Of a stretch of DNA of 64,000 bases, positions 3,724-63,209 are shown piece after piece. This DNA comes from a virus. Lineage: Duplodnaviria > Caudoviricetes. Positions within the stretch are counted from its first letter, which is position 1. Each line of letters opens with the position of its first letter. The stretch is from positions 1,711 to 65,710 of the IMG/VR virus record IMGVR_UViG_3300021363_000005; one strand, written 5' to 3'. The notes beneath the pieces were generated by a model. It saw nothing but the letters and a program-made list of their open reading frames with translations. It searched no databases and had not been told where the DNA came from. Position numbers and translations under genes: made by a program.

Positions 3724-4353
3724 ATGGCTGGAAAACTCGCCTACATCATGTTCATCGAAGACGGGCATCCCGATCAGGGCCTGCCGCCCGGCATGCCGGG
3801 TCATCCCGACCAAGGCTTCAATCCTGCCTATCCTGATCAGGGCCTGCCCGGTGTACCCGGCGCACCCGGTCAGCTGCCGTCTGGACCGGGCGGACGTCCC
3901 GGTCACTTGCCGTCGCATGGTGGTGGACGTCCGGTCGATCCGGGCTACGGCATGCCGGAAGGGCTCAAGCCCGGTCAGCTGCCGGGTTACTCACCCCCGC
4001 AGGTGGCTCCCGGCTCGACGCTGATCATGGTCCGTGATCAGTACGGCACGTGGTACTACGCGTCGCTGCCCAACAGCTCGGCACCGCCGCGTCCGTCGCC
4101 GCAGCCGCCGCAGCCGGGTCAGCCTGATCAGGGTCTGCCGGGTCAGCCGGTTTACCCCGATCAGGGCCTGCCGCCGGGTTCGCCCGGTGCACCCGGACAG
4201 GGACTGCCGGTTCAGCCGGGCTTCCCTGAGCGTCCAAGCCATCCAATCGCACCGGGTGGTCCGCCGGTTCATCCCGGTCAGCCGCTTCCGCCGACTGGCC
4301 AGCCGCCGGTTGCCGGTCAGCCGCTGCCGCCGACTGCCCAACCGCGTCGTTAA
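3724..4353 (+). CDS. Pro/Gly/Gln-rich low-complexity protein with PDQGLP repeats
   Basis: AAGGAG RBS; repeated (H/Y)PDQGLP and PGQ(L/P)P units. Confidence 0.7.
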   Translation: MAGKLAYIMFIEDGHPDQGLPPGMPGHPDQGFNPAYPDQGLPGVPGAPGQLPSGPGGRPGHLPSHGGGRPVDPGYGMPEGLKPGQLPGYSPPQVAPGSTLIMVRDQYGTWYYASLPNSSAPPRPSPQPPQPGQPDQGLPGQPVYPDQGLPPGSPGAPGQGLPVQPGFPERPSHPIAPGGPPVHPGQPLPPTGQPPVAGQPLPPTAQPRR

Positions 4354-4368
4354 CCTCGGGAGTTAGCC

Positions 4369-6105
4369 GTGAGCGTGCTCAAGTTCGATAAGTTCGGTGG
4401 AGAAATCCCGGCGCTCGACGAGCGTCTGCTGCCTGATATGAACGCGGTCTACACTGAGAACGCGTTCCTGCAGGCAGGCCGGCTTGAGCCGCTCGCGGCT
4501 GACATTCCGATCCACACTTTGGTCGATCCGACGATGCGCTATGCGTTCCGGATCCCTATCGACAACCCGGGCATCGAGAACATCCTCGACAGCTACTGGC
4601 TAGAGTTTCTTTACGCCGACACTTTCGTCGTGCGCTCGCCAGTCACCGATCAGGCGGATGGCGGTACCTACTACTGGGCCGATGGTAAAAGCCTGCCGGG
4701 CTATACGACCTACAATCGAGTAGCGGCCAGTCAGCCTAATCTTGTGCTGGGCATTCCTCGGCCGGAGCATGCTCCCGGTCTGACGGTGACAGGTGGTGCG
4801 ATCCCGACCGTGACGCGGGCTTACACCTACACATGGGTCTCCGACATCGGTGAGGAGGGTCAGCCCAGCGATCCGACCTTGGCGACCGGCAACGCCAGCG
4901 GCACGTGGCACGTCACGATGACGGCACCAACGCCGGCCGACAAAGCGAACCGGACGCTGACGACGACACGCATCTATCGCACCGAGACCGGCACGGATGG
5001 CAGCGTCGGGTTCTTCTTTGTCGTCGAGCTGCCCATCGCCACGCTCACCTACGATGACATCGTGTCAAGCGACATCGTGGCGAACAGCGAGCAGCTACAG
5101 AGTGAAGATTGGTCGCCGCCACCGACCGACCTTGCGGGCATGGTGTCGATGCCCAACGGCATGGTTGCCGGGTGGCGCGCCAACGAGCTGTGGTTCTGTG
5201 AGCCCTATCGGCCGCATGCGTGGCCGGTCAAGTACATGCTGGGTGTCGAGAGCCCGATCATGGGGTTGGGTACCATCGACCAGAACTGCATGGTCTTGAC
5301 ATCCGGTCAACCCTACGTCGCAACCGGTGTCGATCCTTCGCAGATGGCGCTCAAGAAGGTCCAGCCACTCGAGCCCTGCACGTCGCCGGGATCCATCGTG
5401 CAGACGCCGGGCGGCGTGCTCTATGCTTCGAATAACGGTTTGATCCTGATCGGTCCGAGCGGTGGCACCAACGTCACTCACGATATGATCCGCAAGGACG
5501 AGTGGCTGCGCCTGTTCAACTTGCGCACCTTGCAGGCGTCCTACTTCATGGACGGCTACTACTGCTATTCGAGCGCCATTGACGGTGTGTTCCAGACCGA
5601 CACGTTCCAGATGGACGCGTTTCAACAGGAAAATTACTTCGGCACAATGATCGGTGCGCACATCTCGCAGGATCAGCGCCTCGGCTACATGACGATCACC
5701 TGCGATCAGCCGACCTACAATGTCATGACCGATCTGTGGACCGGCGAGACGTTCGTGCTGCGCAACGGGCAGGTGTTCCACGTCGACCGTCGCCAGTACG
5801 ATCCCAAGCAGAGCTACGTCTGGCGCTCGAAAATCGTGCAGATGCCGTACAAGGACAACTATGCGGCGGCCAAGATTTTCTACGACGTGCCGAATGGTCT
5901 GGCACCGGCTCCGGGCATCGAGCATCTGTTCAAGATGTACGCCGACGGCAATTTGAAATTCACGCGACCGATCCGCAAGTCGGGTGAGCAGTTCCGTCTG
6001 CCGTCCGGCTACAAGGCGGACTTCTTCCAGTTCGAGCTGAGCGGCCAGCTGATGATATTCAACATGCAGATCGCCACGTCGCCGCATGAATTGCGAGGTC
6101 TTTGA
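4369..6105 (+). CDS. tail nozzle / DNA stabilisation protein (P22 gp10-like position)
   Basis: 578 aa, F.GE.P N-terminus, beta-rich (LWFCEPYRPHAWP, YVWRSK, FRLPSGYK); lies just before the ejection proteins. Confidence 0.7.
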   Translation: MSVLKFDKFGGEIPALDERLLPDMNAVYTENAFLQAGRLEPLAADIPIHTLVDPTMRYAFRIPIDNPGIENILDSYWLEFLYADTFVVRSPVTDQADGGTYYWADGKSLPGYTTYNRVAASQPNLVLGIPRPEHAPGLTVTGGAIPTVTRAYTYTWVSDIGEEGQPSDPTLATGNASGTWHVTMTAPTPADKANRTLTTTRIYRTETGTDGSVGFFFVVELPIATLTYDDIVSSDIVANSEQLQSEDWSPPPTDLAGMVSMPNGMVAGWRANELWFCEPYRPHAWPVKYMLGVESPIMGLGTIDQNCMVLTSGQPYVATGVDPSQMALKKVQPLEPCTSPGSIVQTPGGVLYASNNGLILIGPSGGTNVTHDMIRKDEWLRLFNLRTLQASYFMDGYYCYSSAIDGVFQTDTFQMDAFQQENYFGTMIGAHISQDQRLGYMTITCDQPTYNVMTDLWTGETFVLRNGQVFHVDRRQYDPKQSYVWRSKIVQMPYKDNYAAAKIFYDVPNGLAPAPGIEHLFKMYADGNLKFTRPIRKSGEQFRLPSGYKADFFQFELSGQLMIFNMQIATSPHELRGL

Positions 6106-6290
6106 TGGCCGTCCCAACGATCCCGACGCCCGACGCTACGCCTGAAGGTCTCTATCAATCGGTGATGGCGCTCAAGCAAGTCGTCGACATTGCCCATGGC
6201 AACGTGCCGGTGGGGCCGCGCGCGGCCAAGACGGCGGCCAGCATCAAGATCGGGGCAGCGATCTCTGCCGTCATCCGACTGAACTCGTAG
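6105..6290 (+). CDS. small hypothetical virion-module protein
   Basis: TGATG stop/start overlap with the preceding gene. Confidence 0.5.
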   Translation: MAVPTIPTPDATPEGLYQSVMALKQVVDIAHGNVPVGPRAAKTAASIKIGAAISAVIRLNS

Positions 6291-9668: not shown

Positions 9669-10793
9669 ATGCCTGATCTAGCTTTCAGTCCGGACGCACC
9701 GGAGTACGGGCCCGAAGTCGCGCAAGCTCCTCCGCCCGAGTTGATGCAGTCGCCTTTTCAGAGGCTGCCGGCAGCTGCGCCGTCGCCTGTTCAAGCGCCG
9801 CCCGCGCCGCCCGCGCCGCCGACGGGACAGGGCGATCAGCTTGGCGTGCAAACCGGCACGCCGCCGCCAGCGCCGACACCGGAGCAGGTGAAACAACAGA
9901 CTGCTGCTGAAGCAGCCGACGATATGGAACAGCAAAAGGCTGCCGACCTCGAAGAGGAACAGCAGTACAAGACCTTGCGGTCTCATCACGGCAACTATGA
10001 CATTCTAAAAGACAACGTCACTGCTGATAGTCATCCAGATACCCCTAAGTTGCAGCGGGCATTGGAGCTCTATAGCAAGCTGGGCAAGGGTGACCCTGCG
10101 ATCAAGCAGTACAAACCGCTGATCGACGGTCTGAAAGCGAAAATCAATACCGAGACCAAGGCGCAAAATGACAAGGTGAACGCTGCACGCAAGGTCGAGG
10201 CGGCGCAGGCTGACGCCAAGTATGAAGATGTCAATCAGCGTGAGCGCACCTACGGAACAATCGGCACCATCGTCGACACCGTCGCTGGTGACTATGGCGA
10301 CCGCGCCAAGGATCGCGATCCCAAGGTGGCGCAGGCAAGCGATTTCACCGTCAAGACGTCGCCGCTTACCACCATGTCGATCAAGAAGCGCGACGGGACG
10401 GTATCCTATGAGCCGCTGCGCAACGCTGCGACGTCGATTGCCACGTTGAACGGTCGCATGCCTCCTGACGCTGCGGTGAACCACGTGCTGTCCATGGCGT
10501 CGCCGCTGGGTTTCGACGACAAAGGCAAGCCGCTGACCGGCGTCAACGGCAAGACCGGTGCCGGTGCGACGACCTATCAGGTGATCGGCCGCGACGTGCG
10601 CGACAACTATCTGGTCGTGACCAACGACGGTACGCACTTGCGGGTTGATCCCGATACGATGGCGCAGGTACGACAGGCCCGGCAGATGGGATGGAGGGCG
10701 GCCAAGCAGTGGCAAACTGATCAGAAGAAAGCGGCTGAGCCTGATTGGCTCACTCGTACCTATCGAAGCGTCATTCCCGGGAAGGGCTTCTGA
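9669..10793 (+). CDS. putative internal virion protein
   Basis: Long ORF whose stop overlaps the start of the giant gene (TGATG). Confidence 0.5.
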   Translation: MPDLAFSPDAPEYGPEVAQAPPPELMQSPFQRLPAAAPSPVQAPPAPPAPPTGQGDQLGVQTGTPPPAPTPEQVKQQTAAEAADDMEQQKAADLEEEQQYKTLRSHHGNYDILKDNVTADSHPDTPKLQRALELYSKLGKGDPAIKQYKPLIDGLKAKINTETKAQNDKVNAARKVEAAQADAKYEDVNQRERTYGTIGTIVDTVAGDYGDRAKDRDPKVAQASDFTVKTSPLTTMSIKKRDGTVSYEPLRNAATSIATLNGRMPPDAAVNHVLSMASPLGFDDKGKPLTGVNGKTGAGATTYQVIGRDVRDNYLVVTNDGTHLRVDPDTMAQVRQARQMGWRAAKQWQTDQKKAAEPDWLTRTYRSVIPGKGF

Positions 10794-13700
10794 TGCAGAA
10801 CGAGTTCACCAAGCCGGGATTTCTGTCAGGCATTCGTGATCCGACCGAGGCGGCACCGGAAGACACCAACACGCGGTCGTGGGGGCAGTTCGGTGCCGAT
10901 ACGGCGATTGGTCTGGCCAAGCCGTTGGTCGGCGCAGCGCGCACGGTCACGCAGGGCGCTCGCATGGGTCTCGACGAGCTGCCGCCGGAGGCTCGACCGG
11001 AGTGGTTGGGTGACGCGGCACATGGTCCGGTAGCTGACGTCGACCGTTCGCTGGGCAGCGCCGAGAAGTGGCTCGACGATCAGCGTTCGGCGCGTGACAA
11101 GGCGCTCGACACTGACTCGCCATTTCCCGGTCCTGACCAGCGCAGCTTCTGGCGGGAGCCGATTGCTTCGACCGTTCATCAGATAACGCCGCTCATTCCG
11201 ATGGTGGCGGGTGCGGTCCTGACCGGCGGCACCAGTTTAGCGGCGCAGGCTGGCGTGGCGGCGACGTTCGGTTTGCTGGGTGTCGGCTCGTCGCTCAGCC
11301 AGTTGCGCGATGCTTCCGAGCAAATGCCAATCGATGAACTTAGAAAGTTACCGCAGTACCAAGAGTTCAATGGCGACGAGCAGGCTGCCCGCAACAAGGT
11401 GTTCAAGGACTCGGTCGATTTGAAAACCGAGGCGGCGACGTTCATCGTGAATGGAGCGACGTTCGGTGCCTTCTTGCAGGGCATCGGCAGTCCGGCCAAG
11501 AAGGCGCTGGCGCAACGTCTCAAGAGCATGCTGATCGGCGGTACGGAAGGCGCTGGCATCGGTGCGGCGCAAGGTGCTGTCAGCTCCTACGGCGAAGAGC
11601 TGGGTAAGGTTCGGCGTGGCGAGCAGGAGAGCATTGACCCCGCCAAGGTGGCGGAGAGCACTGAGAGCGGCACGGCGTTTGGTCTGCCGATGGGGCTGCA
11701 CCATTTCGTTTCACCGCACAGACCCGGCCAGAAACCGTCTGAGGAACCACCGGCACCGACGTCGACGCCGCTTGACACCGATGTTAAGAGCGTCGCAACG
11801 CAGGCGCTGCAGACTGACACACCGCCTCCTGAGCCGACGATGTCGCCGTTCGGCGGCGACACGGGCGTACCCGGTCCACAGCAAGCGCCCAGTGCGCCGT
11901 TGCCGCCCGAGTTTCCCAACATCGAGCGGCCCGGTCTCCCGCAGCCCGGCGACTTTCCCCCAAGTAGCTCGCCGGGTCCGCCGCCTCCACCTGCCGGACC
12001 GTCTCCCCCAATTCCCGGTGCCGGTGGTGGAGGTGGCGGTGCTCCTCCTGTTGGCGGTGCGCCGATGTCGACGCGTTCGCGGACGGGCGTGCCCGGACCG
12101 GCACGCGCGCCGACCGAGCCGCTGGCCCCACGTTTTGCTGAGATCGAGCGCCCGGGGTTGCCCAGCCCCGGCGACTTCGGTGCGGAACCAGAACCGGCTG
12201 TGCCGAGTTCTCCTGTCGCGGCACCGCGCCCTGCCCCCGCTGAAGCTGCGGTGGCCGCCCCGGCTCGACCGGCTCCTGTTGTGGCACGGGAGGAGCCGGC
12301 GGCCGGGCCTACTGCGGCTCGAGTTGCCGCGCGTGAAATCCCACAGGGTGGCGGTGAAGGTGTAACTCCCGGTGTAACTCCGGAGGTTAGACAGGAAGCA
12401 CGTGCTGAGCCGCGTCGTGAGACGACGATCACGCCCGGTGCCGAGACGGCCATCGCGCCTGTCACGCAGCGTGCCGAGCATGCGCCGGTCACCTTGGGTG
12501 AGACGCTGTCGGAAGAAGCGCAGGCTCACATGGCGCGGGCACGCGAGCAGGCCGAGACAGCCCAGAACGAACGCAACGCTAAGACGGTTGCCGCGCGCAC
12601 CGGCCGGACGATGGAGCGCACCGGCAAGGTCAAGACCGGCGTCGAGCGGGCGCTCGAAGTCGCGCTCAAGGCGTGGAAGGCGAGCAAGGAGAAAACTGCC
12701 GAGGGCTGGCAGACGCTGCGCCGGCAGGCGATCAACGTCGAAGCAGGGCGGGTCGCGGCCGGGCTCAGGGCCAAGGGGTACCTGAACCAGATCGGCGAGC
12801 GGCCGGTGACACCGGGTGGCGTCGCGCGGGAAGTCGAGCGCATTCGCACCCGTGGTCAGCCGCGCAAGGCACCGGCAGCCGATACCAACGAAGTCCTCAC
12901 GCCCGAGGAAGTGAGTTTTGCCAACCGGCTCGACGAGCTGCATCGGCGGATCACGCCGGACATGCCGCAGCTGCAGTACCGCGCCACCATCCGTCCGATG
13001 CTGGCTGAGGCACGCCGGCTCGACGCGGCTCGCCATGAGAACGGCCAGCCGGCGATTTTCGAACGGGCACTGCCCAAGCCGCCGGGCATCGCGCGCTCGC
13101 TCGAACATCAGTTCAACGATCATGCCCACCGGCTGGAATTGCTGCGTCATCTGTCGCCGGACGAGTTTGCCAATTCCGAAGTCGTGCGCTCGACCCTGCA
13201 GAAGATGGCCGACATCAACGAGAAACGCGTCCCGCAGCGCGCGATCATGCGGCCGACAGAACCTGAGATTGACACGGTGTCAGGCCAGCTTGTGCGCCGC
13301 GAACAGCCGCCCGAGCCCACGGGGTTCCGCCCGCAGCCACACACCGAGTACCGCCCGTTGCCGACGCCCAGCTGGGTATCCGAAAAACTGGCGCAGGCGC
13401 ACACCCAGACCGCACCGTCGATCATCGAGCACCAGCCCTACGCCGAGGCTGTCGCGTCCTTGGCAGGCCGCCAGTACCCCCGCCTGCCGGCGCAGCTGCC
13501 GACGGGCACCGCTGAGGTTAGGCGCATGCGGTCCGAGGCGACGGCGGCCGGGCAGCGGCATGACGTCGGCACGGTCTATCCGCAGGGTGCAGCGACGCCC
13601 GGTAGGGGCAAGGAGCGGCCGCTGACGTCGGCTCAGTTCGAACGGGAGCAGGAGGCGCATCGCGTCAAGACGGCAGCCGGCACGCCGCACGGCGAGGAGC

Positions 13701-20660: not shown

Positions 20661-20900
20661 ATGGCCAAAGGCGCTCCCCCTCCCTTCCTGCGCGGCAAGG
20701 GTGCTGCCGCTGCACCGCCGGCACGTGGCAGCATGGGCCGTCCACCGCCTGCGCCGCCGCGTCGCGCACCGCCGCCGATGGCCCCGCCAGCTGGACCGCC
20801 GCCGATGGATCCTACGATGGCCGGGGCACCGGCTTTCAACAAAGGTGGCAAGGTCGGCGGGTCGTTCCCCAAAGGCAAGCAGGCAAAGATGCCTCGCTAA
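20661..20900 (+). CDS. small Pro-rich basic protein
   Basis: GGAGG RBS; MAKGAPPP...FNKGGKV. Confidence 0.6.
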   Translation: MAKGAPPPFLRGKGAAAAPPARGSMGRPPPAPPRRAPPPMAPPAGPPPMDPTMAGAPAFNKGGKVGGSFPKGKQAKMPR

Positions 20901-20914
20901 CTCCGGAGGTTGCC

Positions 20915-22862: not shown

Positions 22863-25829
22863 TTACTCGACGTTGAGGAACCTTGCGTTCTCCGGCTTCG
22901 ACAGGTCGAACTCCCAGACATACTCACGGGCGGGCGGATTTTTCAGTTCAGTGCCGGCACCAAGTGAGCGTTGATTTTTCGGTCGCGTGCAGAAGCCTGC
23001 TTTGAGCAGCACGCGCCTCATGTGATGGAAGTCTTGGTCACTCTTGCGGCACGCACTTTCTATCTGCGGCTCGCTTAGCAGCATTATTTTTTCGCTGGTG
23101 GCGATGCGCCCAACATAGGGCGGTTTCAAATCATACAGCTGATTTTTGATCTGTTCCTTGGTGTGCGGGTTCGTACCCTGCCTTGCGATGCCGTTCGTCA
23201 CGATCATGTTGCTGATCCGCTCGTTGACGAAAGTGCTGATGCGGTTCAGGGCAACTTGTGGATCGTCGGCATCAACAGCTGCTTCGCTCAACGTCATGCG
23301 TTGGTGACGGAATTGATCGAACAGGAACTTCTTCATTGACATGATGTCAAAGTCGAGCAGGTTGAGGTGCTTGGCTATGGTCGCGCCAAGATAGATCGCG
23401 ACGATGGTGGCCAGCCAGAAGCGCTCGCTCTCGACAGCATTAAGCTCCTTTTGAAACTCTTGTGTGCACAGCACGACCGCTTGATCGACGTTGCCGTAGT
23501 GCTGGTTGAGATAGTCGGCATAGACTGTTCCGGCGGTGCCATGGTTACTTTCCAGCAGGCGTTTGATGATCACTACTCGATCCAGTGTCAGGCCGAGTTT
23601 GGTGATGGCGTTGGACAGCTCGATCTCGACAACGCGCAACGCCTGCGCCGTCGTCTCTCGACTAGTCTTTTGCACCAGTGAGAAATTTCCTGCCGTGGTC
23701 AGCAGTAATTGGGAATAGCGCTGCGGCTTGCGGGTAGCGTTGCGGGTAAGCCGACGGTGATCCTTAGCCCCCGTGATGTTGAGCACCATCTCGCCGACCT
23801 TGCTGAAATTACTGCGTGCGTCGACCACGAACTCATCGGCATAGACCGGCAGGTTGTGTATCATCGCGATGTATTCTCTGGTATCGGCCGGAGTGCCGCT
23901 GCCCAGTACGGCGCGCATCGACGCCCACACGCTGCAGGCAATTTCCAGCGACGCTGTTTTTCCCCTGCCACTCGGTGCCCGGGCGTGGACGATGCCACCG
24001 TCGACACCAGTAAACCGCATCAGGGGCGAGGCGAACGCCGTGGCGATCAACACTTCCATTTCGATGCAGCCCTTGTCGACGAAGAAGCTGGCACCCTTTT
24101 TCCACTCGCTGAGTTCACCGCACGACTGATACTCCGGTGCTGAGTTGCGGCCGCCATAGGCGAAGCCTTGAATGTTGCCGTCCTTCTCAAGCCAACCCAT
24201 GCGACTGACCGACAGGCCATCACGCCGCTGTTGGACCAACGTGACCCATGCCGTCATGTACGGTTTCACCTGTTTGAAGTTCGAGTACATCAGACCGTTG
24301 CCGAAGCAGTGCTCGGCAAAGCTCTGATCTGATTTAAGCGAGCCTAGCGGTACGAAAAATGTTTTCTTGTCATCGAAGCCCTGAGTACCGCGAGCGATGC
24401 AAAACTCTATTCTAACCGGAAGCTCAGCCGTGCCGTCGAGATAGGTCATGCTGTAGACCGGCGTCAGAAAGACCGGGTTGTTTTCGCCATCGGTAATGAG
24501 ATGGTCCGGCGTGTGGATGAAGCCGGGCGGCAGAAAGATCGGCTCGTCTGCCAGCGGCAGGAGGTGGGTCATTACCGGCCCCGCATGACCGTTCACGCTG
24601 CCGTTCATGTGGGTGCGGGTCGGCGTGCCGCTGCCCGACAGACCGCGCGTGGCGTAGTTGATCGGCGACTGACCCTGACCGTTGAACTGGCAGGTCCGGC
24701 AGATCGCCGCCGCTGCTGTGCTGGCGCGGGCGATGGTGGCGCATGCCGGCCAGCCCTGCGGCTGGGCTATGTCGAACTTGGCGTCGGTCTGCTCGGGGTC
24801 GTAGCGCCCATCGTCGCTCGACAGATCGTGGAAATAATCTCGACCGTCCTGCACGTAGTGGCAGAGCTTGGCGAGCTCGAACCACAGCGGCTCGAGGTCT
24901 CCACTGCCGCCACGTCGTTCGCTATCTGCAACAACTGGGCAAGCTCCTCGAAGCAGCTCGATGGAGGTGACGATACGAGAATGGTCAAGACTGGCGAGCG
25001 CACGATTAGCCTCCGCTCCCCGAATTGGCGGGCGTGGTGGCAGGACGGCAGGGTCGATCACGGCGGCGCGCGGCGGGTGGCTAACTCCGGAGGTTAGCGG
25101 GAACCCGCTCAGCGCCGTCGTGACCTCGGCCAAGGTCATCGTCTCGCCAAGGCTTAAAACCTTACATTCCTTGGGGTTATTTGGGTCCTTGCGATTGAAG
25201 CTGCCCGGCAGGCGCAGCAGGGTGACCGAGTTGCGCGTGACGCCATGATCGAATTTCAGCCCGTGCTGGGTAGCCGCCTCGATCAGCCGGTCAGCCAGCG
25301 GCTGCCAGACGGCGCGCGTGATCGGCTGATCGAGCACGATGTAGGCGTGGATGCCGTGCCCGGTGCTGACGATGGGCCCCGGTCGGATCCCGATCTTGTC
25401 AAAAAACGGTAGCAGGGCGGCCAGCGCGGCCCCCTGAGAGGCGTAACCTTTGTCCTTAACGTCTAGGTCCAGCACCAACGAACGCAACCAGCGGGCATTT
25501 GTGGCCTTCCTGTCGCCCTTGCTGAGCTTGCGGTTGCCACGCCCGTCAGTCTGGCCGGTGTAACCCTGCCCGGAGAGACAGAAAAATACCTGCGCTTGAA
25601 TGTGGTTTAGGAAGCCGGTGAAGTTCTGCAGCTGGCCGTACTCGTCCATGCCGCCGAAGGCGCGGCCGCCGCCCCGGTACGGCATCGCCAGATTGCCGCC
25701 GAAGGCGTGGATATTCACAAAACTGTCAGGTGGATTTGCGACACTCCACGGCACCACCCGGCCCAGAAACTGGGCCAGCGGGTCGGGAATGTATGTGCCG
25801 TTGCCGAACGGCGTCTCGTTGCCCCCCAC
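22863..25829 (-). CDS. primase-helicase (AEP/RepB-like primase plus DUF927-type P-loop domain)
   Basis: LVLDLDVK, STGHGIHAY, LLRLPGSFN primase motifs; Cys cluster; APSGRGKT Walker A and YADE Walker B. Confidence 0.85.
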   Translation of the reverse strand: MGGNETPFGNGTYIPDPLAQFLGRVVPWSVANPPDSFVNIHAFGGNLAMPYRGGGRAFGGMDEYGQLQNFTGFLNHIQAQVFFCLSGQGYTGQTDGRGNRKLSKGDRKATNARWLRSLVLDLDVKDKGYASQGAALAALLPFFDKIGIRPGPIVSTGHGIHAYIVLDQPITRAVWQPLADRLIEAATQHGLKFDHGVTRNSVTLLRLPGSFNRKDPNNPKECKVLSLGETMTLAEVTTALSGFPLTSGVSHPPRAAVIDPAVLPPRPPIRGAEANRALASLDHSRIVTSIELLRGACPVVADSERRGGSGDLEPLWFELAKLCHYVQDGRDYFHDLSSDDGRYDPEQTDAKFDIAQPQGWPACATIARASTAAAAICRTCQFNGQGQSPINYATRGLSGSGTPTRTHMNGSVNGHAGPVMTHLLPLADEPIFLPPGFIHTPDHLITDGENNPVFLTPVYSMTYLDGTAELPVRIEFCIARGTQGFDDKKTFFVPLGSLKSDQSFAEHCFGNGLMYSNFKQVKPYMTAWVTLVQQRRDGLSVSRMGWLEKDGNIQGFAYGGRNSAPEYQSCGELSEWKKGASFFVDKGCIEMEVLIATAFASPLMRFTGVDGGIVHARAPSGRGKTASLEIACSVWASMRAVLGSGTPADTREYIAMIHNLPVYADEFVVDARSNFSKVGEMVLNITGAKDHRRLTRNATRKPQRYSQLLLTTAGNFSLVQKTSRETTAQALRVVEIELSNAITKLGLTLDRVVIIKRLLESNHGTAGTVYADYLNQHYGNVDQAVVLCTQEFQKELNAVESERFWLATIVAIYLGATIAKHLNLLDFDIMSMKKFLFDQFRHQRMTLSEAAVDADDPQVALNRISTFVNERISNMIVTNGIARQGTNPHTKEQIKNQLYDLKPPYVGRIATSEKIMLLSEPQIESACRKSDQDFHHMRRVLLKAGFCTRPKNQRSLGAGTELKNPPAREYVWEFDLSKPENARFLNVE

Positions 25830-29803: not shown

Positions 29804-29981
29804 GACTAACCTCCGAGGTTATGACCGGCGGCACCATGTCTTCCATCTGCTTGAACGTCATGCCGTGGTTGATCCAGAACCACAGCATCTGAGCCTGATC
29901 GAGGTCCCACTTGGCCCCTTTCAGGATTTCGTAGCGGCGCGTCGTGTCGCGTTCGCTGTGGTCGATACGGATGTCCATCAT
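29757..29981 (-). CDS. small hypothetical protein
   Basis: ATGA overlap with the nuclease stop (MMDIRIDH...). Confidence 0.45.
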   Translation of the reverse strand: MMDIRIDHSERDTTRRYEILKGAKWDLDQAQMLWFWINHGMTFKQMEDMVPPVITSEVSHEFKRAGLCGSEHGD

Positions 29982-33269: not shown

Positions 33270-35192
33270 TCACTTGGTCTCGCCGTAGCGGACGCCGACG
33301 CCGATGTCACACGCCAGCGGGATCGTCGGCATCCATGTCGGGGGCCGGTTCATCTCCAATTCGGCCCAAATCTTTGCTGTTTCAATGTGCTGGATGGGCA
33401 CCCGGTAGACCAGCTCGTCATGGGCCGAGTGGACCAGCCGTGCGCCCAGCCCGGCCATCGGGTTGCGCAGCCGGACCGCCGCCGACATGACGATGCAGCG
33501 GCAGCAGTGCTGGGCGATGGTCTCGAGCAGCGAGGCTCCGTAGGTGCGCCGCTGCTTGCGCCCGTCGCGGAACCACCAGTTGCCCATGCCGTCTTCCTCT
33601 TGGACGTAGCGCAGCTCGGGGAAGTGGATCGGCAGGCCGGTCGGCCCGACCATCAGGTTCTTGTAGAAGGTCACGCACTTCTTCACCAAGCCTTCGCCCT
33701 GACCAAACTCGGGCAGCGAGTGCATGATCTGCAAAATGTGGTCGAGCTCGCGCCACGTGAAGACGATACGACGGAAACGTCCCCGGTATTTTTGCACGAC
33801 GTCGATGGACTGCTCGTCGGTCAACTGGATCGGAGTATCGGTCTTGGCGCTCAGGATAAAAACGGTGTGCTGGAATTTCAGCCAGCCGCAGGCATAGCCC
33901 AATTGTAGAATGCCGGTCTTGCCGACGAACCGTTCCAGCTTGTCGAGGCTGGTGATCAGGCGGGCGAATACAGTGCTCGCGAAGTCGGCGTAGACGTCAC
34001 GTCCCTCGCGGAATGCCTGCACGAGATCTTCCTGCCCGCAGAACTCAGCCGTGAAGCGGGCCTCGATCTGCTTGGCATCAACGGTCAACAGCAAGTAGCC
34101 GTCGTCGCAGTAAATGGCGTCACGCAGCACGCTGTCACGTCCAAGGTTCTGCACGTTCATTTCCCACGCACCGCCGAAGCGATGGGTGTGCGCAGCACCG
34201 ATGACCACCGGCATGGGCATGATGCAGGTGCCGAGTTTGGGGAACTCTAGGTCGGCGATCTTGAGGAAGCGCGTCGTGCGCGTTTCCTCTTGGGTTGACT
34301 TGGTTTCGAGCCGCGCCTCGACCACCGTACGCACCATGACGTTGGGATGTTCCTGCAAGGCAAGGAAATCCTCGTCGCTCTTGGCGAAGGCGTAGGTCTC
34401 CTGCTGGGTGCGGCCGGATATTTTGGTGGGCGGCGTCACTCCCAGCATGCGCAGCACGTCGGCCAGCTTGGGGTTGCTCATGAGGTCGGCCTTGGTGACA
34501 CCCATCGCCTCGACCTGCGCCAGTGCCAGCGCCTTCTGCTGCTGGACCGTAACCAGATGGTTGGCCAGCATCTGCTTGTCGACGCGCAGTAGGGGCTCGG
34601 TGGTGCAGCGGGTGACGATGTCGTGCAGGATGAACTCGTCGGGTGGCATCTTGTCGAACAGGCGCAGGTAGATCTCGCGACAGAGCCACGTGTCGTGCAG
34701 GCAGTATTCGACCTCGCGATCCCACAGCCCAGCGGCGATGATGTCGGCCCGGGTCATACCCTTCACTTCCTTGATCAGCGATCCCTTGGCCGGCAGGCCG
34801 AAGTAAGCAGCGACGCTGTCGAGAGAGTGTGACGCCAGCTTTGAACCCAGCATGGTGCGCGTCATGGCGATGGTGTCGACGATCAGGTCCGGGCTGAAGT
34901 CGTAGACCCACGACAGGATCGACATGTCGAACTGAGCGTTGTGGCTGACCATGACGATGGGCTGCTGGGTCTCGATGCGATGGCGTTTTATTTTGTGGAT
35001 GAAGTGGGGGATCTCTGGTCCATCGATCAGGATGGGATCGCCCGTGATGCCCGCTACCCCTAGGCAGATCGACTCATAACGGGGGTCCAGAATGTATTCG
35101 GCGGGCGACATGCGGCGCAGGGAATACTCTGTGGAATAGTGACTTTCAAAATCGCAAAATAGCCCGATAACCTCCGGAGTTATCATGGTCAT
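33270..35192 (-). CDS. polA: DNA polymerase family A with N-terminal 3'-5' exonuclease
   Basis: CDFES/HNAQFD/YCLHD exonuclease motifs; DAKQIEAR (A), RFVGKTGILQLGY (B), HDE (C). Confidence 0.92.
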   Translation of the reverse strand: MTMITPEVIGLFCDFESHYSTEYSLRRMSPAEYILDPRYESICLGVAGITGDPILIDGPEIPHFIHKIKRHRIETQQPIVMVSHNAQFDMSILSWVYDFSPDLIVDTIAMTRTMLGSKLASHSLDSVAAYFGLPAKGSLIKEVKGMTRADIIAAGLWDREVEYCLHDTWLCREIYLRLFDKMPPDEFILHDIVTRCTTEPLLRVDKQMLANHLVTVQQQKALALAQVEAMGVTKADLMSNPKLADVLRMLGVTPPTKISGRTQQETYAFAKSDEDFLALQEHPNVMVRTVVEARLETKSTQEETRTTRFLKIADLEFPKLGTCIMPMPVVIGAAHTHRFGGAWEMNVQNLGRDSVLRDAIYCDDGYLLLTVDAKQIEARFTAEFCGQEDLVQAFREGRDVYADFASTVFARLITSLDKLERFVGKTGILQLGYACGWLKFQHTVFILSAKTDTPIQLTDEQSIDVVQKYRGRFRRIVFTWRELDHILQIMHSLPEFGQGEGLVKKCVTFYKNLMVGPTGLPIHFPELRYVQEEDGMGNWWFRDGRKQRRTYGASLLETIAQHCCRCIVMSAAVRLRNPMAGLGARLVHSAHDELVYRVPIQHIETAKIWAELEMNRPPTWMPTIPLACDIGVGVRYGETK

Positions 35193-41228: not shown

Positions 41229-41347
41229 CCTTTAACTCCGGGGGTTGAAGTATTGCTCGTAGGTCACGCGGGGTTCCGGCCACAGCGCCAGAACTCCCAT
41301 CAGCACACCGCCCAGCACGAACGCAGCGATCAACCAGTCGACGTATC

Positions 41348-43127: not shown

Positions 43128-43769
43128 TTAACCTCCGGAGTTAGAGAGAAGTTTCGTCTCGAATAGTTGTACGACCAGTCGGTTGGTCTCGTCGAACACC
43201 CACTGAAAGTTCTTGTAGGTTTCCTCATATCCCGCAATCGGTGGCAGACGGCGCAGGCCAGCCTCCCGACGCATTGCCTCCATGCCGGGCACGATGTCCC
43301 ATGCATGCGCGGTGTCGTAGCCCAACCACCACAGGCCGTGCGGGCAGTCGTCGTGGCACAGCTGCCATAGACGGATCCATTCCTGCCAGCCGATCAGCGT
43401 CGAGGTGTCGCCTTTGCGATCCTCGCGCAGATGACGCGCCGCGTCGCCCTGCGGGTAGAGCAGACTCTCGGTCACCCACGCCTCGCGATGCAGGCGGTAG
43501 CGGATCCACTCGTCAGCCTCCAGCGGATGGCAGTAAGCCGCATAGGTGAGCCCGCCGTGAACCTCGGCGTCGATGTCGTTGTAATCCTTGCCAGCCAGCG
43601 GATGGTTAGGTCCGAGGCCGACATAGCCGCACCACGAGCCGAGCGCGCCGCGTCGCATGGTGCAGCGCGCGCCGGTCTCCTCGTGCACCCAGATCGCCCG
43701 GTCGGGCTCGTCGTCCCATTCACCGTAAGGCCAGCCGGTGCGGTCGTTGATGTTGTCGAAGGTGTCCAT
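43128..43769 (-). CDS. hypothetical protein (WCGYV / VHGGLTY / WWLGYD family pattern)
   Basis: GEWDDEPD, WCGYVG..HP, VHGGLTY, WWLGYDTAH; GGAGGAG RBS. Confidence 0.7.
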   Translation of the reverse strand: MDTFDNINDRTGWPYGEWDDEPDRAIWVHEETGARCTMRRGALGSWCGYVGLGPNHPLAGKDYNDIDAEVHGGLTYAAYCHPLEADEWIRYRLHREAWVTESLLYPQGDAARHLREDRKGDTSTLIGWQEWIRLWQLCHDDCPHGLWWLGYDTAHAWDIVPGMEAMRREAGLRRLPPIAGYEETYKNFQWVFDETNRLVVQLFETKLLSNSGG

Positions 43770-48325: not shown

Positions 48326-49075
48326 TTAACCTCCGGAGTTAGCAATCGGAGGCGTGATCTTGACCTTGGCGAGTTTCTCTTTCTTGTTGTCAGCCTTGGC
48401 CTGTTTGGCCTTATCTTTGGCCTCGGCCTTCTGCTTCTTGGTGCCGCCGAGTTCCTTGACCATTTTCTCGAGGATGTCGCAGCACTTGTAGATCTCGGGG
48501 TAGTCGTAGCCTTCGTTGAGTTTGAGGATGCGCTCGCGCTCTGCCCAGAACTTCTCGGCAAGGTCTTTCTTCTTAACCTTGGTCGAGTGGTCGGCCATGG
48601 TGCCGTCGATGTCCTTGTCGGCAAGGGCATGCTTGGGCTTGTTGTTCTGGGCACGGGCAAAGCCGAGCAGCAGCTCCCAGATGCGGCCTGACTTGACGGT
48701 GCCGTTCGAGCGCAGGTGCTTCATGCGCTCGACGGCGCGATGCAGCACGGCAGGTCCGTCGTAGTTGGGATTACGGCCGAGGATGATGAAATGCTTGATG
48801 TCGGAGGCACGCTGCTTGAATTGCTGGGTTTCCCTGATGTCGTTGCCGCCGACGTCTAAAAGCTCCTCGCCGGCACCCTCGATGATCTCGGACCATGCCC
48901 GTTTGTTGTCGTCCTCGTCGAACAGGCCCTCCTTGGCTTTGCGGGCGATCAGCTCGGCGGCGCGCAGGCGTGCCGTCTTGCCTTTGCCCTCGGAGCGGCC
49001 GATCTCGCGCAGTTCAGCAAACGCTGCCGCTTTGGCAGCGTCGATGTTGGACGCAGTTGGTGTATTGTCGGTCAT
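48326..49075 (-). CDS. 249-aa helical hypothetical protein (paralog of 52250-53002)
   Basis: AAACAGGAGAG RBS; motif A upstream and motif B at the stop. Confidence 0.7.
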   Translation of the reverse strand: MTDNTPTASNIDAAKAAAFAELREIGRSEGKGKTARLRAAELIARKAKEGLFDEDDNKRAWSEIIEGAGEELLDVGGNDIRETQQFKQRASDIKHFIILGRNPNYDGPAVLHRAVERMKHLRSNGTVKSGRIWELLLGFARAQNNKPKHALADKDIDGTMADHSTKVKKKDLAEKFWAERERILKLNEGYDYPEIYKCCDILEKMVKELGGTKKQKAEAKDKAKQAKADNKKEKLAKVKITPPIANSGG

Positions 49076-51413: not shown

Positions 51414-51442
51414 ATCATAACTCCGGGGGTTAATGATGTCAA
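51414..51442 (-). promoter_or_regulatory. near-consensus sigma70 early promoter; motif B in the spacer and motif A over the start site
   Basis: TTGACA (51442-51437) - 17 bp - TATGAT (51419-51414). Confidence 0.8.
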
Positions 51443-51449: not shown

Positions 51450-52120
51450 ACGTACATTAGAATGTTTCTAATGTACATTCGTGTTGTGCGGCAAGCTCGA
51501 TTGCCCCTGACCGGCACGATTTACACGGCACATGCGGTCGGCAAATAGTTTTCATTTGATGATAAGCGAGCGGCCAAGTGATGAGCAGCTCATGTTAAAT
51601 AGAAAAATCGCTTATCATGAACCCTTTAATATCAACGGGTTAGGGGATGATAAGGATGATAAGGAGGGTTTTGGTGCACATAGCCCCAACTATTCTTCAA
51701 CGGGGAGTTTAAGTGACTACTATTAGTTACTTAAACTCCCCGTGAGATCACATGTCGGCTGTATACGTCGTTTATCCTCCTTATCTTCCTTATCATTACA
51801 TTGGTAAGTTCCGGAGGAACTTCCCATTAACCCAAGCTATCCCGTAAGTGCCGGATAATATGAGACTATTAGACACAATCATATATCGGAACACACAGTT
51901 TTCCTTATCATGATGATAAGGAGGATGATAAGGATACAATGGAAAGTTTGGCTTATCTGCCGCCCTTGCTGGCCCTAACCATGTCAAGTAGAAACTTACT
52001 ATTAAACAAATTCCTACTTACCATGTCAAGTAGAAACTTACTATTAAACAAATTCCTACTTACCATGTCAAGTAGAAACTTTCCACTTGACATTGTGTTA
52101 AGTGGTAACTCCCGGAGTTA
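51450..52120. other. putative replication origin / non-coding control region
   Basis: AT-rich and gene-free; GATAAG repeats in both orientations; 20-bp stem at 51700-51743; 11-bp inverted repeat at 51452-51476. Confidence 0.55.
51978..52081. repeat. 42-bp tandem repeat, about 2.5 copies
   Basis: ACCATGTCAAGTAGAAACTTACTATTAAACAAATTCCTACTT at 51978 and 52020, partial copy at 52062. Confidence 0.95.
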
Positions 52121-52207: not shown

Positions 52208-52237
52208 AAAACCCGCGACCCTTGCGGGTCGCGGGTT
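52208..52237 (-). terminator. intrinsic terminator of 52250-53002
   Basis: CCCGCGACCC-GCAA-GGGTCGCGGG followed by TTTT on the - strand. Confidence 0.75.
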
Positions 52238-52249
52238 CGCGGTAAGTTT

Positions 52250-53002
52250 TCAGTTCACGCTCTGAGACTGGGCGCTGCCTTCGAGCTGCGCCTTAAGCTG
52301 CGCCATCTCGTCGGCCGCAGACAGGCCGGTCTCGCCGTCGGCGACTTCGCACGCCTTGACGAACGCCTCGCACGCCTGAACAACGGCGAGCATTGCGATA
52401 CGCTGGCGCGGCTTCGCCTTGATGGCTTCGAGCGCCACCTTGTCCGACTTGGCGACGCGTTCGTCCGACGTTGTCGAAAGCCACCGCTTGGCTAGCGTCA
52501 AGGCAGGGTTCTCGTCTGCCTTGGAAACCGGATTGAGGATGGCGTCAAGCTCGACGTCGTTCGGCTTCGTGGTCGGATGCTTGTCCATCACCTTGCGGAC
52601 CTTGGCCCCGCGAACGGTATAGGACTGCTTGTCCAACTTGGTCGCCTTCTCGACGATGTCGCTCATATCGTAGGCAGCGAACCGCCCCGCGTCTGCGAAC
52701 GCACCGAAAGCGGATGCCCAAGTCTTAACCGAATTTTCGGAAAGCTCCTTGCGCATGCTGCCTTCGCCCGACCGGAAAGGCGTATTGAACGCGTCGAAAA
52801 TCTTCGCCGTATCAATGTCGCCGTTCACCTTGTTCTGCCGATGGGCAACGCCAACGGCGAACATGAAAGCGGCGAACCGCTCGAATACGGACAGGTCCGT
52901 AAGATTGCCCGTGCCGATCTCGGCCGCTGCCTTGATGATGGCCGCCTCTGATTTCAGGCTTTTGGCGTCGTACTTGCTGATATCCAACATTTTCGTCTCC
53001 AC
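52250..53002 (-). CDS. ~250-aa helical hypothetical protein, monocistronic (paralog of 48326-49075)
   Basis: GGAG RBS favours ATG at 52990; two motif A copies upstream; own terminator. Confidence 0.7.
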   Translation of the reverse strand: METKMLDISKYDAKSLKSEAAIIKAAAEIGTGNLTDLSVFERFAAFMFAVGVAHRQNKVNGDIDTAKIFDAFNTPFRSGEGSMRKELSENSVKTWASAFGAFADAGRFAAYDMSDIVEKATKLDKQSYTVRGAKVRKVMDKHPTTKPNDVELDAILNPVSKADENPALTLAKRWLSTTSDERVAKSDKVALEAIKAKPRQRIAMLAVVQACEAFVKACEVADGETGLSAADEMAQLKAQLEGSAQSQSVN

Positions 53003-53181: not shown

Positions 53182-53210
53182 TTGACATCGCTAACCGCCG
53201 GGGTTAAGCT
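53182..53210 (+). promoter_or_regulatory. sigma70-like rightward promoter with motif B in the spacer
   Basis: TTGACA (53182-53187) - 17 bp - TAAGCT (53205-53210). Confidence 0.7.
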
Positions 53211-53292
53211 TCTCCCACCCGCGAAAAAGCGCCATTGACATTATGTCAAGAGGTACTTATCTGCTTCACGTGGCATATGGAGATGTTTGTAA

Positions 53293-53772
53293 ATGGCATA
53301 CGATACCCAGCTCAAGATGGATCCCACGCCGATGCCGATAAAGCCTGCGGTGCTGCTCCTGCTGCATCGTCGTCGCAAGATGGCGTTCGTCAGCTACACC
53401 TCGAACGCACGCGGTCGCGCGGCTGTCTTGGCTTCCGCTATCCGCCACCGCGACACCGTCGAGCGCGCCCATCTGCGCGACCTGCCCGAGGGCGACATCA
53501 GGGACTTCGCCTTGCTGGCGACCAGCGTCGGCTTGGAGCCGCGCAAGGCCAACAAGACGGTCGAACGCCTGCAGGCCAAAATGGTGCGCGACGGTTACAA
53601 GCTGTTCGGCAGCCCCCGCTCTGCCATCCCGCTGGTGACGCTCAACGGCAAGCGCATGTCGTTGGTCGAGGCGATGCTGGAAGCCAAGTGCAAGACCAAC
53701 TATCAGACCTGCTATCGCCGGGTGCAGCGCGGCTGGCCAGTCAAGGCTGCTCTCGACTTGGAGCCGAGATAG
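53293..53772 (+). CDS. homing-endonuclease-related protein with C-terminal DNA-binding motif
   Basis: C-terminal TLNGKRMSLVEA..NYQTCYRRVQRGW resembles the C-terminus of the HNH at 35189; N-terminus may be a degenerate GIY-YIG. Confidence 0.5.
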   Translation: MAYDTQLKMDPTPMPIKPAVLLLLHRRRKMAFVSYTSNARGRAAVLASAIRHRDTVERAHLRDLPEGDIRDFALLATSVGLEPRKANKTVERLQAKMVRDGYKLFGSPRSAIPLVTLNGKRMSLVEAMLEAKCKTNYQTCYRRVQRGWPVKAALDLEPR

Positions 53773-53829
53773 CGATACGCCGAAGCGTGTCGCTTTCGCT
53801 CGATCTCGAACCCAAATAGGAGCCATACA

Positions 53830-54066: not shown

Positions 54067-54106
54067 CGCGCGTAAATGCGCGCGTCATCCAGCGCCCGGT
54101 GCTGGG

Positions 54107-55560: not shown

Positions 55561-55616
55561 CGCCTTGTAGCTTGAGGGGCGGGCAAGACGCGCCAGCTTT
55601 GCTGGAGGTTGCTGGT

Positions 55617-57068: not shown

Positions 57069-57080
57069 GACTTCATGATC

Positions 57081-57584
57081 TCATGTCTCAGTAACTCCCG
57101 GGGTTAGGATCGCCTCACCTTCGATGGTCTTGGGCTCGCTCGACTCCTTGTCAAACGATAACTTATGACCGCCCAGCATGATGTTGATCTGCACCCGCCC
57201 GCTGCCGTCGTCCTTGGTCAATGGACCCTCACCAAGATGACCTAGCTTGGCAAGGAATTGCAGGGCTTGTACGCGCGCGGCACCCGGTATGTCCGCGTCG
57301 CGAATGATGTCGACGGTGTCCAACAGCAGCTCCTCGATCATCGACGCTGCCTTGACCGACACGCGCTCGCGCAAATTCTGCTTGGTGCTGGCCGACCAGA
57401 TCTGTGCTTCCTCGAGCAGATGGGTCTGGAAGATCGGGTGTTCCTTGATCCGGTCGTAGGCGTCGCTGTCGATGCCGGCGCGTTGCAGCAGGATTTCGAG
57501 CGGCTGGATCTCGCGCGCGATCTCGCGGGCGATACGGGCCATGTCGAGTTCGGTGAGCTCGCGTTGACCGACCATCAGGGTCAT
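57081..57584 (-). CDS. terS: probable terminase small subunit
   Basis: Directly upstream of terL, helical, GSGRVQINI C-terminal strand; AAGGAG RBS. Confidence 0.65.
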   Translation of the reverse strand: MTLMVGQRELTELDMARIAREIAREIQPLEILLQRAGIDSDAYDRIKEHPIFQTHLLEEAQIWSASTKQNLRERVSVKAASMIEELLLDTVDIIRDADIPGAARVQALQFLAKLGHLGEGPLTKDDGSGRVQINIMLGGHKLSFDKESSEPKTIEGEAILTPGVTET

Positions 57585-57658
57585 CTGGCGCTCCTTGTAG
57601 GATTGTTTCAGTAAGGCTACTATACCCAGTATCTATTGGTAAGTTCTCGCGGGGGACC

Positions 57659-62089: not shown

Positions 62090-62132
62090 CGTATAGGTCA
62101 ACAGGCTCCGGCGGTTGCCGCAGGAGCCTGCC

Positions 62133-63146
62133 ATGGCCGTTTATCCTCTCGCTGGTTCGGGCACCGTCCCGCCGATTTTCCCCACCGGTTCGCTTACCCC
62201 CGCTCCCGCTTACTCGCATACCGTCATCCCAGAGATCTGGTCAGGCAAGCTGATCGAGAAGTTTTACGCCTCGACCGTGCTGGCTGCGATCTCCAACACC
62301 GCCTACGAAGGCGAGATCAAAAATCAGGGCGACACGGTGCATATCCGCACCAAGCCCACCATCACCATCAATGACTATCTGGCCGACGGCGGCATCGTGG
62401 TGGAGCGCCCGAGCTCCAACATCGTCGACCTGCTGATCAACAAGGGCAAATACTTCGCCACCATCCTCGACGACGTTATGGAGACGCAGTCCGATCTCAA
62501 CCTGCTCGGCATGTGGAGCGACGACGCCGCTCAGCAGATGAAGATCAAGATCGACGCTGACGTCCTGCTCGGTCTGCTGGGCGGAGCCGACGCGGCCAAC
62601 CGGGGCGCGACCGCCGGCAAGATTTCCGCCAGCCTCAACCTCGGTATCACCGGTACCCCGGTTGCCATTTCCCGCACCACCGGCACCCCGGCTTCCTCGG
62701 TGTCGATCCTCGACATGCTGCTGCGCATGGGACAGGCGCTCGACGAGCAGAACGTCCCCGAGGAGGGACGCTGGTGCGTCATCCCGTCGTGGGCATCGAC
62801 CAAGATCAAGCAGTCCGAATTGCGGCAGGCGTATCTGTCGGGCGACAGCGTCTCGATGCTGCGCAACGGCCGGCTCGGTCAAGTCGACCGCTTCACCATC
62901 TACGTGTCCAACCTTCTGCCCAAGGGTCCAGTGACCGGTCCTCCGGTGCTGGCAGCGGGCGAGTGGGTGTTCTACGCAGGCCACGCGCACGGCCTCACCT
63001 TCGCCAGCCAAGTCTCCAAGGTCGAGACGCTGCGTTCTGAGTTCACCTTCGGCCAGATCCTGCGCGGCTTGCAGGTCTACGGCTACAAGGTGGTCGATCC
63101 GATTGCGATCTCGCAGGCGATTGTCACCCCGGCAGTGGGCGACTAA
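62133..63146 (+). CDS. major capsid protein
   Basis: IPEIWSGKL..FY..TV...ISNT.YEGEIK..GDTVHI, GR.G.VDRF.IYVSN, RGLQVYG.KV; AGGAG RBS. Confidence 0.9.
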   Translation: MAVYPLAGSGTVPPIFPTGSLTPAPAYSHTVIPEIWSGKLIEKFYASTVLAAISNTAYEGEIKNQGDTVHIRTKPTITINDYLADGGIVVERPSSNIVDLLINKGKYFATILDDVMETQSDLNLLGMWSDDAAQQMKIKIDADVLLGLLGGADAANRGATAGKISASLNLGITGTPVAISRTTGTPASSVSILDMLLRMGQALDEQNVPEEGRWCVIPSWASTKIKQSELRQAYLSGDSVSMLRNGRLGQVDRFTIYVSNLLPKGPVTGPPVLAAGEWVFYAGHAHGLTFASQVSKVETLRSEFTFGQILRGLQVYGYKVVDPIAISQAIVTPAVGD

Positions 63147-63209
63147 CCCCCGGAGTTAGACCGCTTGACATAATGTCAAGCGGTCAACTTCCTCTTAACG
63201 GGGGGCGCG

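Follow-up and report, generated by a model that had tools for sequence, protein, structure and literature searches.

The window analysed here is a 64,000-nucleotide stretch, bases 1711-65710, of the IMG/VR virus record IMGVR_UViG_3300021363_000005 (Caudoviricetes; 65,710 bp, rated complete), whose DNA is present in soil metagenome runs. Family matches in the window include a T4-type large terminase, a portal, a major head protein, an internal virion protein, a tail fibre, and an endolysin, together with a family-A DNA polymerase (PolA; Pfam), a helicase, an exonuclease, and a 988-amino-acid (aa) DUF927 protein. Nucleotide similarity to cultured phages is restricted to a stretch of ~100 bp that is common to Bcep22-like, Ralstonia, and Rhizobium podophages. 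Dispersed among these genes is a short palindrome, TAAC-N7-GTTA, hereafter motif B, which several uncultured soil podophages of one group share as a lineage feature.

The original prediction, made from the letters of the window, had listed 14 copies of motif B and proposed that it is selected at the DNA level. Exact copies number 12 in the window, compared with a mean of 0.12 and a maximum of 1 in 100 dinucleotide shuffles. Two further copies have one outer mismatch (GTTG) and a typical core, which brings the total to the predicted 14; eight other one-mismatch matches have atypical cores and were excluded from the count. When the spacing in TAAC-Nk-GTTA was varied from k = 3 to 12, only k = 7 was found and the other nine spacings gave 0, and the reversed arrangement GTTA-N7-TAAC did not occur in the window genome. 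The left 12 bases, TAACYYCSGRRG, are followed by TTA in 11 of 13 cases. Twelve of the 14 copies are intergenic or lie within 30 nt of a gene end, compared with 19.7% of all positions (P = 2e-7).

A pool of 76 exact copies from five related genomes (one-mismatch copies and the relative G010 left out) defines the full motif as an odd palindrome of 15 bases, S-TAAC-YYC-S-GRR-GTTA-S. Position 7 is C and position 9 is G, each in 74/76 copies, positions 5/6 are pyrimidines and 10/11 purines, and the base frequencies of the two halves mirror each other. The centres of the invariant half-sites TAAC and GTTA are separated by 11 bp, or one helical turn, and the pooled copies have no consistent orientation. 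Flanks beyond +/-1 are not conserved and the unit is only 15 bp, unlike REP (repetitive extragenic palindromic) or MITE (miniature inverted-repeat transposable element) mobile palindromes. The CtrA box is TTAA-N7-TTAA, and the alphaproteobacterial LexA box is the direct repeat GTTC-N7-GTTC. Motif B had been said to fit neither, and this holds by sequence: the base preceding TAAC is T in only 7/76 copies and the half-sites are TAAC/GTTA, hence not the TTAA half-sites of CtrA, while motif B is an inverted TAAC repeat and TAAC-N7-TAAC (or its complement) occurs once in the genome. Spelled as TAAC-N7-GTTA, TAACN7GTTA, TAACNNNNNNNGTTA, or either common 15-mer, motif B was not found in the literature searched.

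Table 1. Copies of motif B, early promoter-like sites, and the genes beside them in the window (asterisk, stop codon; palindrome A is described in the text)
Feature	Position	Strand	Form	Context
Motif B	4351..4365		exact	TAA is the stop of gene 3724-4353; GGGAG 3 nt before GTG 4369 of internal-virion-protein gene 4369-6105 (phrog_511 match)
Motif B	12363..12389		exact at 12375-12389, with overlapping degenerate copy 12363-12377	deep in giant gene 10793-19423
Motif B	20898..20912		one outer mismatch (GTTG)	TAA is the stop of the gene ending at 20900; GGAGG 2 nt before ATG 20915
Motif B	25082..25096		exact	deep in 988-aa DUF927 (primase-like) gene 22863-25829 (-); encodes LTSGVS
Motif B	29807..29821		exact; perfect 7+1+7 palindrome	3 nt upstream of ATG 29803 of small gene 29615-29803 (-)
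Motif B	35168..35182		exact	first PolA codons (M-T-M-I-T-P-E-V-I); 6 nt past TGA stop of open reading frame (ORF) 35189-35599
Motif B	41233..41247		one outer mismatch (GTTG)	4 nt upstream of ATG 41228 of 480-aa gene 39786-41228 (-); the stop it would give belongs to an upstream 39-aa ORF, a weak gene call
Motif B	43129..43143		exact	NSGG* end and TAA stop of 43128-43769; GGAGG 2 nt before ATG 43126 of gene 42659-43126 (-)
Motif B	48327..48341		exact	NSGG* end and TAA stop of 48326-49075 (-); no start codon after
Motif B	51418..51432		exact	fills spacer of leftward early promoter-like site; no adjacent stop or start codon
Motif B	52106..52120		exact; perfect 7+1+7 palindrome	intergenic, downstream of 246-aa gene, beside degenerate palindrome A
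Motif B	53192..53206		exact	spacer of rightward early promoter-like site, upstream of conserved 159-aa early gene
Motif B	57092..57106		exact	last codons of terS-position gene 57081-57584 (LTPGVT); 23 nt upstream of terL start 57068
Motif B	63144..63158		exact	TAA is the stop of major-capsid-like gene 62133-63146; palindrome-A hairpin next
Predicted promoter	51414..51442	-		TTGACA-17-TATGAT, 11/12; top score in 49000-57800
Predicted promoter	53182..53210	+		TTGACA-17-TAAGCT; orthologous to B- or B'-bearing consensus promoters in relatives
246-aa all-alpha ORFan	52250..52990	-		between divergent early promoters, flanked by B copies; weak binder candidate
159-aa protein	53293..53772	+		first gene of rightward early operon; weak N-terminal GIY-YIG-like fold

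At gene junctions, motif B doubles as punctuation, much as had been proposed. Its TAA is an in-frame stop at 4351, 20898, and 63144 (genes ending at 4353, 20900, and 63146), and a start codon lies 2-4 nt past the motif at 4351, 20898, 29807, and 43129, where use as a ribosome-binding site (RBS) had been predicted; a further such use, beyond those four, was found at 41233 (ATG 41228, minus strand). The described imprint on unrelated proteins is likewise present. Genes 43128-43769 and 48326-49075 end in LLSNSGG* and PIANSGG*, the exact copy in the giant gene encodes PGVTPEV and the near-copy at 12363 yields the repeat GVTPGVTPEV, the DUF927 protein reads FPLTSGVS, and the terS-position protein ends in AILTPGVTET*. 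PolA reads MTMITPEVIGLF when its start is set at ATG 35192/35186 from relatives, its N terminus having been placed by alignment with G010 and G001. The label terS is given by position only, and the label primase rests on the DUF927 Pfam match.

In the pooled copies, the first TAA is an in-frame stop in 35/76, and the last TA plus an A in 2/76. A start codon is found within 12 nt in 31/76 copies, mostly 2-5 nt past the motif, with GGAG, GGGG, or GAGG as the core; of the rest, 16 are stop-only, 15 lack any stop or start nearby, and 14 lie wholly within genes. In one relative, G001, 19 of the 29 TAA stops belong to motif B. On the mRNA strand, 26/31 start-linked copies have G as the central base, compared with roughly half elsewhere. 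Because this bias is confined to the start-linked copies, RBS use is an overlay on a symmetric DNA site. Although motif B does serve as stop codon and RBS, this use fails to account for it.

The same counts also suit a translational junction cassette, in which the 3' half, GGAGGTTA, is an extended Shine-Dalgarno (SD) sequence and the 5' half, TAACCTCC, which we take to resemble the anti-SD at the 16S 3' end, pairs with it. A ribosome terminating on UAA would then melt the hairpin, free the SD, and couple the two genes. Such a device accommodates the first-TAA stops, the start-linked copies and their central G, and the share of TAA stops in G001, but 45/76 copies have no start codon within 12 nt and several are located in promoter spacers. 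The hairpin is also weak (mean minimum free energy of -3.8 kcal/mol for 21-mers around the copies, z = -1.1, with 6/76 near zero). C-A mismatches occur at pair 5-11 in 21/76 copies and at pair 6-10 in 25/76, with no covariation at either, and motif B thus lacks the stable stem with compensatory changes of an intrinsic terminator or structured RNA hairpin. Furthermore, TAAC and GTTA are kept strictly rather than as pairing bases, which a hairpin does not need, and the relative G002 handles the same junctions without the motif. We therefore regard a translational role as the reason for motif B as improbable.

Related records were gathered by portal, terminase, and early-gene searches, and differ widely in their motif B content. 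The complete G001 genome (61.5 kb) contains 38 exact copies, while 19 were detected in G003 (38.5 kb), 4 in G006 (13 kb), and 3 in G005 (19 kb). The complete G010 genome (61.6 kb) has 4 exact copies, of which 3 are typical, and 6 one-mismatch copies. G004 (26 kb) has 1 atypical exact copy, and G002 (58 kb, 96% complete) has none. G002 is equal in GC content, has a similar mix of stop codons, and contains 17 TAA..RBS words, yet 0 copies of motif B; therefore, stop-plus-RBS composition does not make the motif, and the enrichment stands when this composition is controlled for. G004 carries instead six copies of TAAC-N8-GTTA with the half-site TAACCAC, again providing a stop and an RBS at junctions.

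Several placements are kept between genomes whose proteins are 50-85% identical. The stop codon of the capsid gene carries motif B in 5 genomes, and the motif lies upstream of the start of the internal virion protein gene in 4. At the 3' end of terS, an exact copy is found in the same place in G001, G003, and G006 and a one-mismatch copy in G005 and G010, and the stop of a 115-aa head-module gene is another conserved placement. Within the DUF927 gene, the motif occupies the same spot in the window genome and G010 and is shifted by ~3 codons in G001, in a stretch where the proteins barely align and where G002 has nothing. Selection at the DNA level, as originally proposed, is thus supported by the exact 7-base spacing and strict two-fold symmetry, by the absence from G002 despite the same GC, stop, and RBS usage, by promoter-core copies without a stop or start nearby, and by retention in the poorly conserved DUF927 stretch but not in G002.

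Each relative also has its own second palindrome family. In the window, this is palindrome A, TTGACA-N3-TGTCAA, with 16-28 copies depending on the arm counted (among them 51399-51413, 53235-53249, and 63165-63179). It often lies within a long GC-rich hairpin, and the copy after the capsid gene has a folding energy of -19.6 kcal/mol. The orthologous places are occupied by TTAACA-N3-TGTTAA in G001 and G005, which fits the CtrA consensus TTAA-N7-TTAA, and by CTTATA-N4-TATAAG in G002. In G004, 13 copies of GCGAACTTTAAAGTTCGC are found in intergenic gaps.

The most telling evidence in this analysis is the placement of motif B at promoters. A scan of 49000-57800 for sigma-70-like promoters returned 9 sites, compared with a mean of 3.3 in shuffled sequences. 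In the highest-scoring of these, at 51414..51442, motif B occupies the spacer and shares its final TA with the start of the -10 element. This arrangement, TTGACA-N4-B with the -10 opening at GT|TA, is seen again at position 53192 of the window and position 38369 of G001. The region upstream of the 159-aa early gene was aligned in relatives and metagenome loci. At this orthologous early promoter, the spacer holds motif B in L187 (-10 TACAAT) and L190 (-10 TATACT). In G004/L184 and L188, the promoters are perfect (TTGACA-17-TATAAT) and their spacer contains the N8 variant, which is offset from the -35 by 3 nt, not 4, so that the spacer remains 17 nt. In G003 and L185/L186, motif B comes immediately after the -10; in G010, a one-mismatch form overlaps the -35; and a GTTG form is found ~30 nt downstream in L191 and L201. 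In the aligned upstream regions of L182, L197, and G002, no motif B was found at this promoter.

On balance, we lean towards motif B being an operator array for a dimeric, sequence-specific DNA-binding protein, analogous to the stoperators and start-associated sequences of mycobacteriophages. This interpretation is favoured because motif B is symmetric with half-sites one turn apart, sits in promoter cores, has a private N8 counterpart, is retained within coding sequence, and is essentially missing from the sampled host-clade genomes (see below). The protein is most probably phage-encoded. Recognition by a second factor, as put forward in the original prediction, remains the best explanation, although no binding protein was found. 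A dimer would bind the two TAAC/GTTA half-sites one helical turn apart, with the YYC-S-GRR core also constrained. Bound at the two divergent early promoter cores, it could shut off or time early transcription. At junctions, the motif's own letters provide the upstream TAA stop and a downstream GGAG/GGAGG SD, so that a gene-dense genome can accommodate a 15-bp protein site without giving up space; protein bound there may be a roadblock or simply one more occupied site, by analogy with stoperators. Protein binding, repression, roadblocking, and a phage origin of the factor are inferences.

The 246-aa ORFan is encoded between the divergent early promoters, where a repressor gene would classically be expected. 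Only 5 homologues of this protein were found among 5.8 billion proteins searched, with only unnamed viral clusters in the Atlas, and its BLAST-detectable relatives are in motif-bearing genomes only. An AlphaFold2 (AF2) model is all-helical with a predicted local distance difference test score (pLDDT) of 83, and a Foldseek comparison with the PDB gave no match at E <= 0.001. In a more specific version of the operator reading, motif B and its N8 sister would be the operators of a fast-evolving private repressor with a fold that has no solved relative, possibly the 230-290-aa all-alpha protein encoded at this position, which would silence or time the whole genome through roadblocks on stop/SD junctions. 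We consider this version rather unlikely. If true, it would provide a palindromic Gram-negative counterpart of stoperators, with one 15-mer being operator, stop codon, and RBS.

Several observations weigh against an operator array. The gene models come from a custom codon-usage heuristic caller and are approximate, and the promoters are sigma-70-like consensus matches that are predicted, not mapped. At 53182..53210, the -10 (53205-53210) is weak and falls below the scan threshold, and the scan did not list the site. L182, the closest relative of the early gene (82% identity), is among the loci lacking motif B at the promoter. Pfam or PHROGs scans of ~60 window proteins revealed no DNA-binding domain except in PolA, and in phyletic profiling no gene family cleanly followed the presence of the motif. 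The first candidate binder from this profiling was a 63-aa CxxC...CxxC zinc-ribbon protein (45734-45925, minus strand), whose family alone is shared by the window genome, G001, and G003 while absent from G002 and G004. It was rejected, as homologues occur on the motif-free G007, G008, and G009 and the family is missing in G010. The syntenic family in the repressor position is 11-60% identical among relatives with the same motif, which is hard to reconcile with an unchanged specificity, and its identity matrix (computed without L186, a duplicate of L185, and without loci that lack the upstream gene) groups only slightly by motif type. Finally, junctions with motif B are synteny breakpoints more often than other junctions (34/48 informative cases vs 109/200, odds ratio 2.0, P = 0.05).

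Such breakpoints would also fit a recombination linker, a shared 15-mer offering the phage's recombination functions a short homology for cassette swaps between co-infecting relatives and kept since exchange preserves the stop, RBS, and start. The insertion of an extra gene immediately past the terS copy in G001 and G003, the exonuclease-family gene at 29978-30718, and copy numbers that range from 0 to 38 among relatives are also consistent with exchange. However, the excess of breakpoints is of borderline strength and confounded by the mosaic nature of the early region, and the gene inserted after terS has no second flanking copy. Linkers would require neither a palindrome nor exact spacing nor placement in promoter spacers or coding regions, and the flanks beyond +/-1 are not conserved. 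This account therefore appears doubtful, and we assign it a low probability.

The nearest prophage-like capsid genes (67-69% identity) were found in Bradyrhizobium, Xanthobacteraceae, and Pseudolabrys assemblies. Among these capsid relatives (L090, L093, and L091/L092), two Bradyrhizobium assemblies have contigs of ~60-61 kb, the size of a whole phage genome, and a Pseudolabrys metagenome-assembled genome carries two capsid copies ~62 kb apart on one 465-kb contig. The ~60-kb contigs and the Pseudolabrys pair hint that part of the wider group is temperate or episomal. No motif B was found in the 21-kb loci of the prophage-like relatives, nor was the 159-aa early gene with the query used. The strict motif, TAACYYCSGRRGTTA, had 0 matches in the five Bradyrhizobium/Xanthobacteraceae-type genomes carrying these relatives and a single match in 2 of 401 genomes sampled from the same order (around G013), while the reversed control pattern matched in 49 of the latter (hand count of the table). 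Rare codons (xTA, TTA) or palindrome avoidance may explain why the strict motif is rarer than the reversed pattern in the 401 genomes.

These counts bear on whether the operator is bound by a host regulator or nucleoid protein instead of a phage protein. The search for a phage candidate found none, and presence or absence among relatives could mirror different hosts. In a host regulon, however, sites would be expected in host genomes, and the near-absence of the strict motif from the 406 sampled genomes counts indirectly against one, with the qualification that the sampled clade may not be the host's. Moreover, the N8 variant with its changed half-site looks like a co-evolved private protein-site pair. 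A host factor is thus quite improbable.

A role as the target of a phage nuclease, nickase, or DNA-modifying enzyme (e.g., GIY-YIG or HNH) that marks or opens its own DNA at defined places would suit the palindromic form, as palindromes suit dimeric nucleases, and the window offers some candidates. The N-terminal 100 residues of the 159-aa protein weakly resemble the GIY-YIG domains of UvrC and I-TevI (AF2 model, pLDDT 75; Foldseek E 0.14-0.8, best E 0.14 with probability 0.66-0.72), and its C terminus looks helix-turn-helix-like by eye. Gene 29146-29586 matches an endonuclease PHROG. The 136-aa ORF 35189-35599 (minus strand), directly upstream of PolA and overlapping its start (ATGA), we take by eye to resemble a homing-endonuclease-type or AP2-like DNA-binding protein with a C-terminal helix-turn-helix. 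However, the GIY-YIG fold match is below significance, D63 is the sole invariant acidic residue among 6 orthologues, and the 159-aa protein is conserved in all relatives, equally so in the motif-free G002. Double-strand cuts at up to 38 places would fragment the genome, and the promoter placement would go unexplained. A nuclease target is therefore highly improbable. An integron attC-like reading of the AAC...GTT ends was dropped, since the unit is much too small and an integrase was not seen (no aimed test was made), and so was a pac-site reading of the terS copy, given the many other copies.

Two other genes of the window stand apart from these questions. An early gene at 49510-49845 (minus strand) encodes a 111-aa protein with a superinfection-immunity domain (PF14373, E = 1e-14). 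A 511-aa AAA/STAND-type NTPase (36772-38307, minus strand; PF00004, nSTAND3), found otherwise only in G003 (77% identity), resembles defence or counter-defence cargo.

Dispersed boundary repeats, such as stoperators, start-associated sequences, and the palindromes of Cluster O, are known almost only from actinobacteriophages and are mostly functionally untested. Motif B provides a clear case from soil phages, with nearest prophage-like relatives in Bradyrhizobium/Xanthobacteraceae-type genomes. One short sequence may here have three layers of meaning (stop codon, SD, and putative protein-binding site). It forces the peptide tags NSGG*, TPEV, TPGV, and TSGV onto unrelated proteins, which matters for gene calling and for readings of selection. 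The natural comparisons among relatives with 38, 19, 12, 4, and 0 copies, and with the N8 sister in the same promoter, make the question testable.

Three known systems invite comparison. As described in the account cited, Cluster A mycobacteriophages (L5, TipsytheTRex) carry tens of copies of one short site genome-wide; a single copy is located at the early promoter, the others mainly occupy short gaps between genes, and repressor binding there blocks initiation and elongation (PMC9283540). These stoperators are asymmetric 13-bp sites, oriented with transcription and bound by the phage immunity repressor, a monomer with two DNA-binding domains (a helix-turn-helix and a stoperator domain). Motif B is similar in occupying intergenic regions or gene ends (12/14 window copies) and early promoter spacers. 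It is unlike them in being a 15-bp palindrome without orientation that overlaps stop codon and SD, and its phages are of a proteobacterial-host type, with no homologous repressor seen.

The start-associated sequence and its extended form (SAS/ESAS) of Cluster K phages are described as a 13-bp repeat with an SD core, located 3-7 bp before start codons, sometimes with the upstream stop inside, and absent from host genomes. The copy number varies from 0 to ~19 among subclusters (PMC3203893, PMC12699233), and the repeat is asymmetric, in a single orientation, and confined to non-structural genes; in 2025, the function of SAS was still described as untested (PMC12699233). Motif B likewise lies a few bases before start codons with an SD core (31/76). 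In contrast, it is palindromic, its first TAA is a stop in 35/76 copies, and it is also found at the capsid, internal-virion-protein, and terS genes, in promoter cores, and in coding regions.

According to the source cited, Cluster O mycobacteriophages contain >30 copies per genome of a 17-bp dyad, TGTTCGG-N3-CCGAACA, an invariant inverted repeat of unknown function mostly between genes or at gene ends, with no meaningful orientation (PMC4351075). Motif B is similarly a dispersed inverted repeat at gene boundaries without orientation, but it differs in sequence and host, has a stop/SD role, of which the Cluster O account describes none, and is placed in promoter cores. Overall, motif B would seem to work most like the stoperators of Cluster A and to look like a blend of the Cluster K SAS and the Cluster O palindrome. 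However, it belongs to none of the three systems, as it is palindromic, is found in proteobacterial-type phages, and merges operator, stop codon, and SD.

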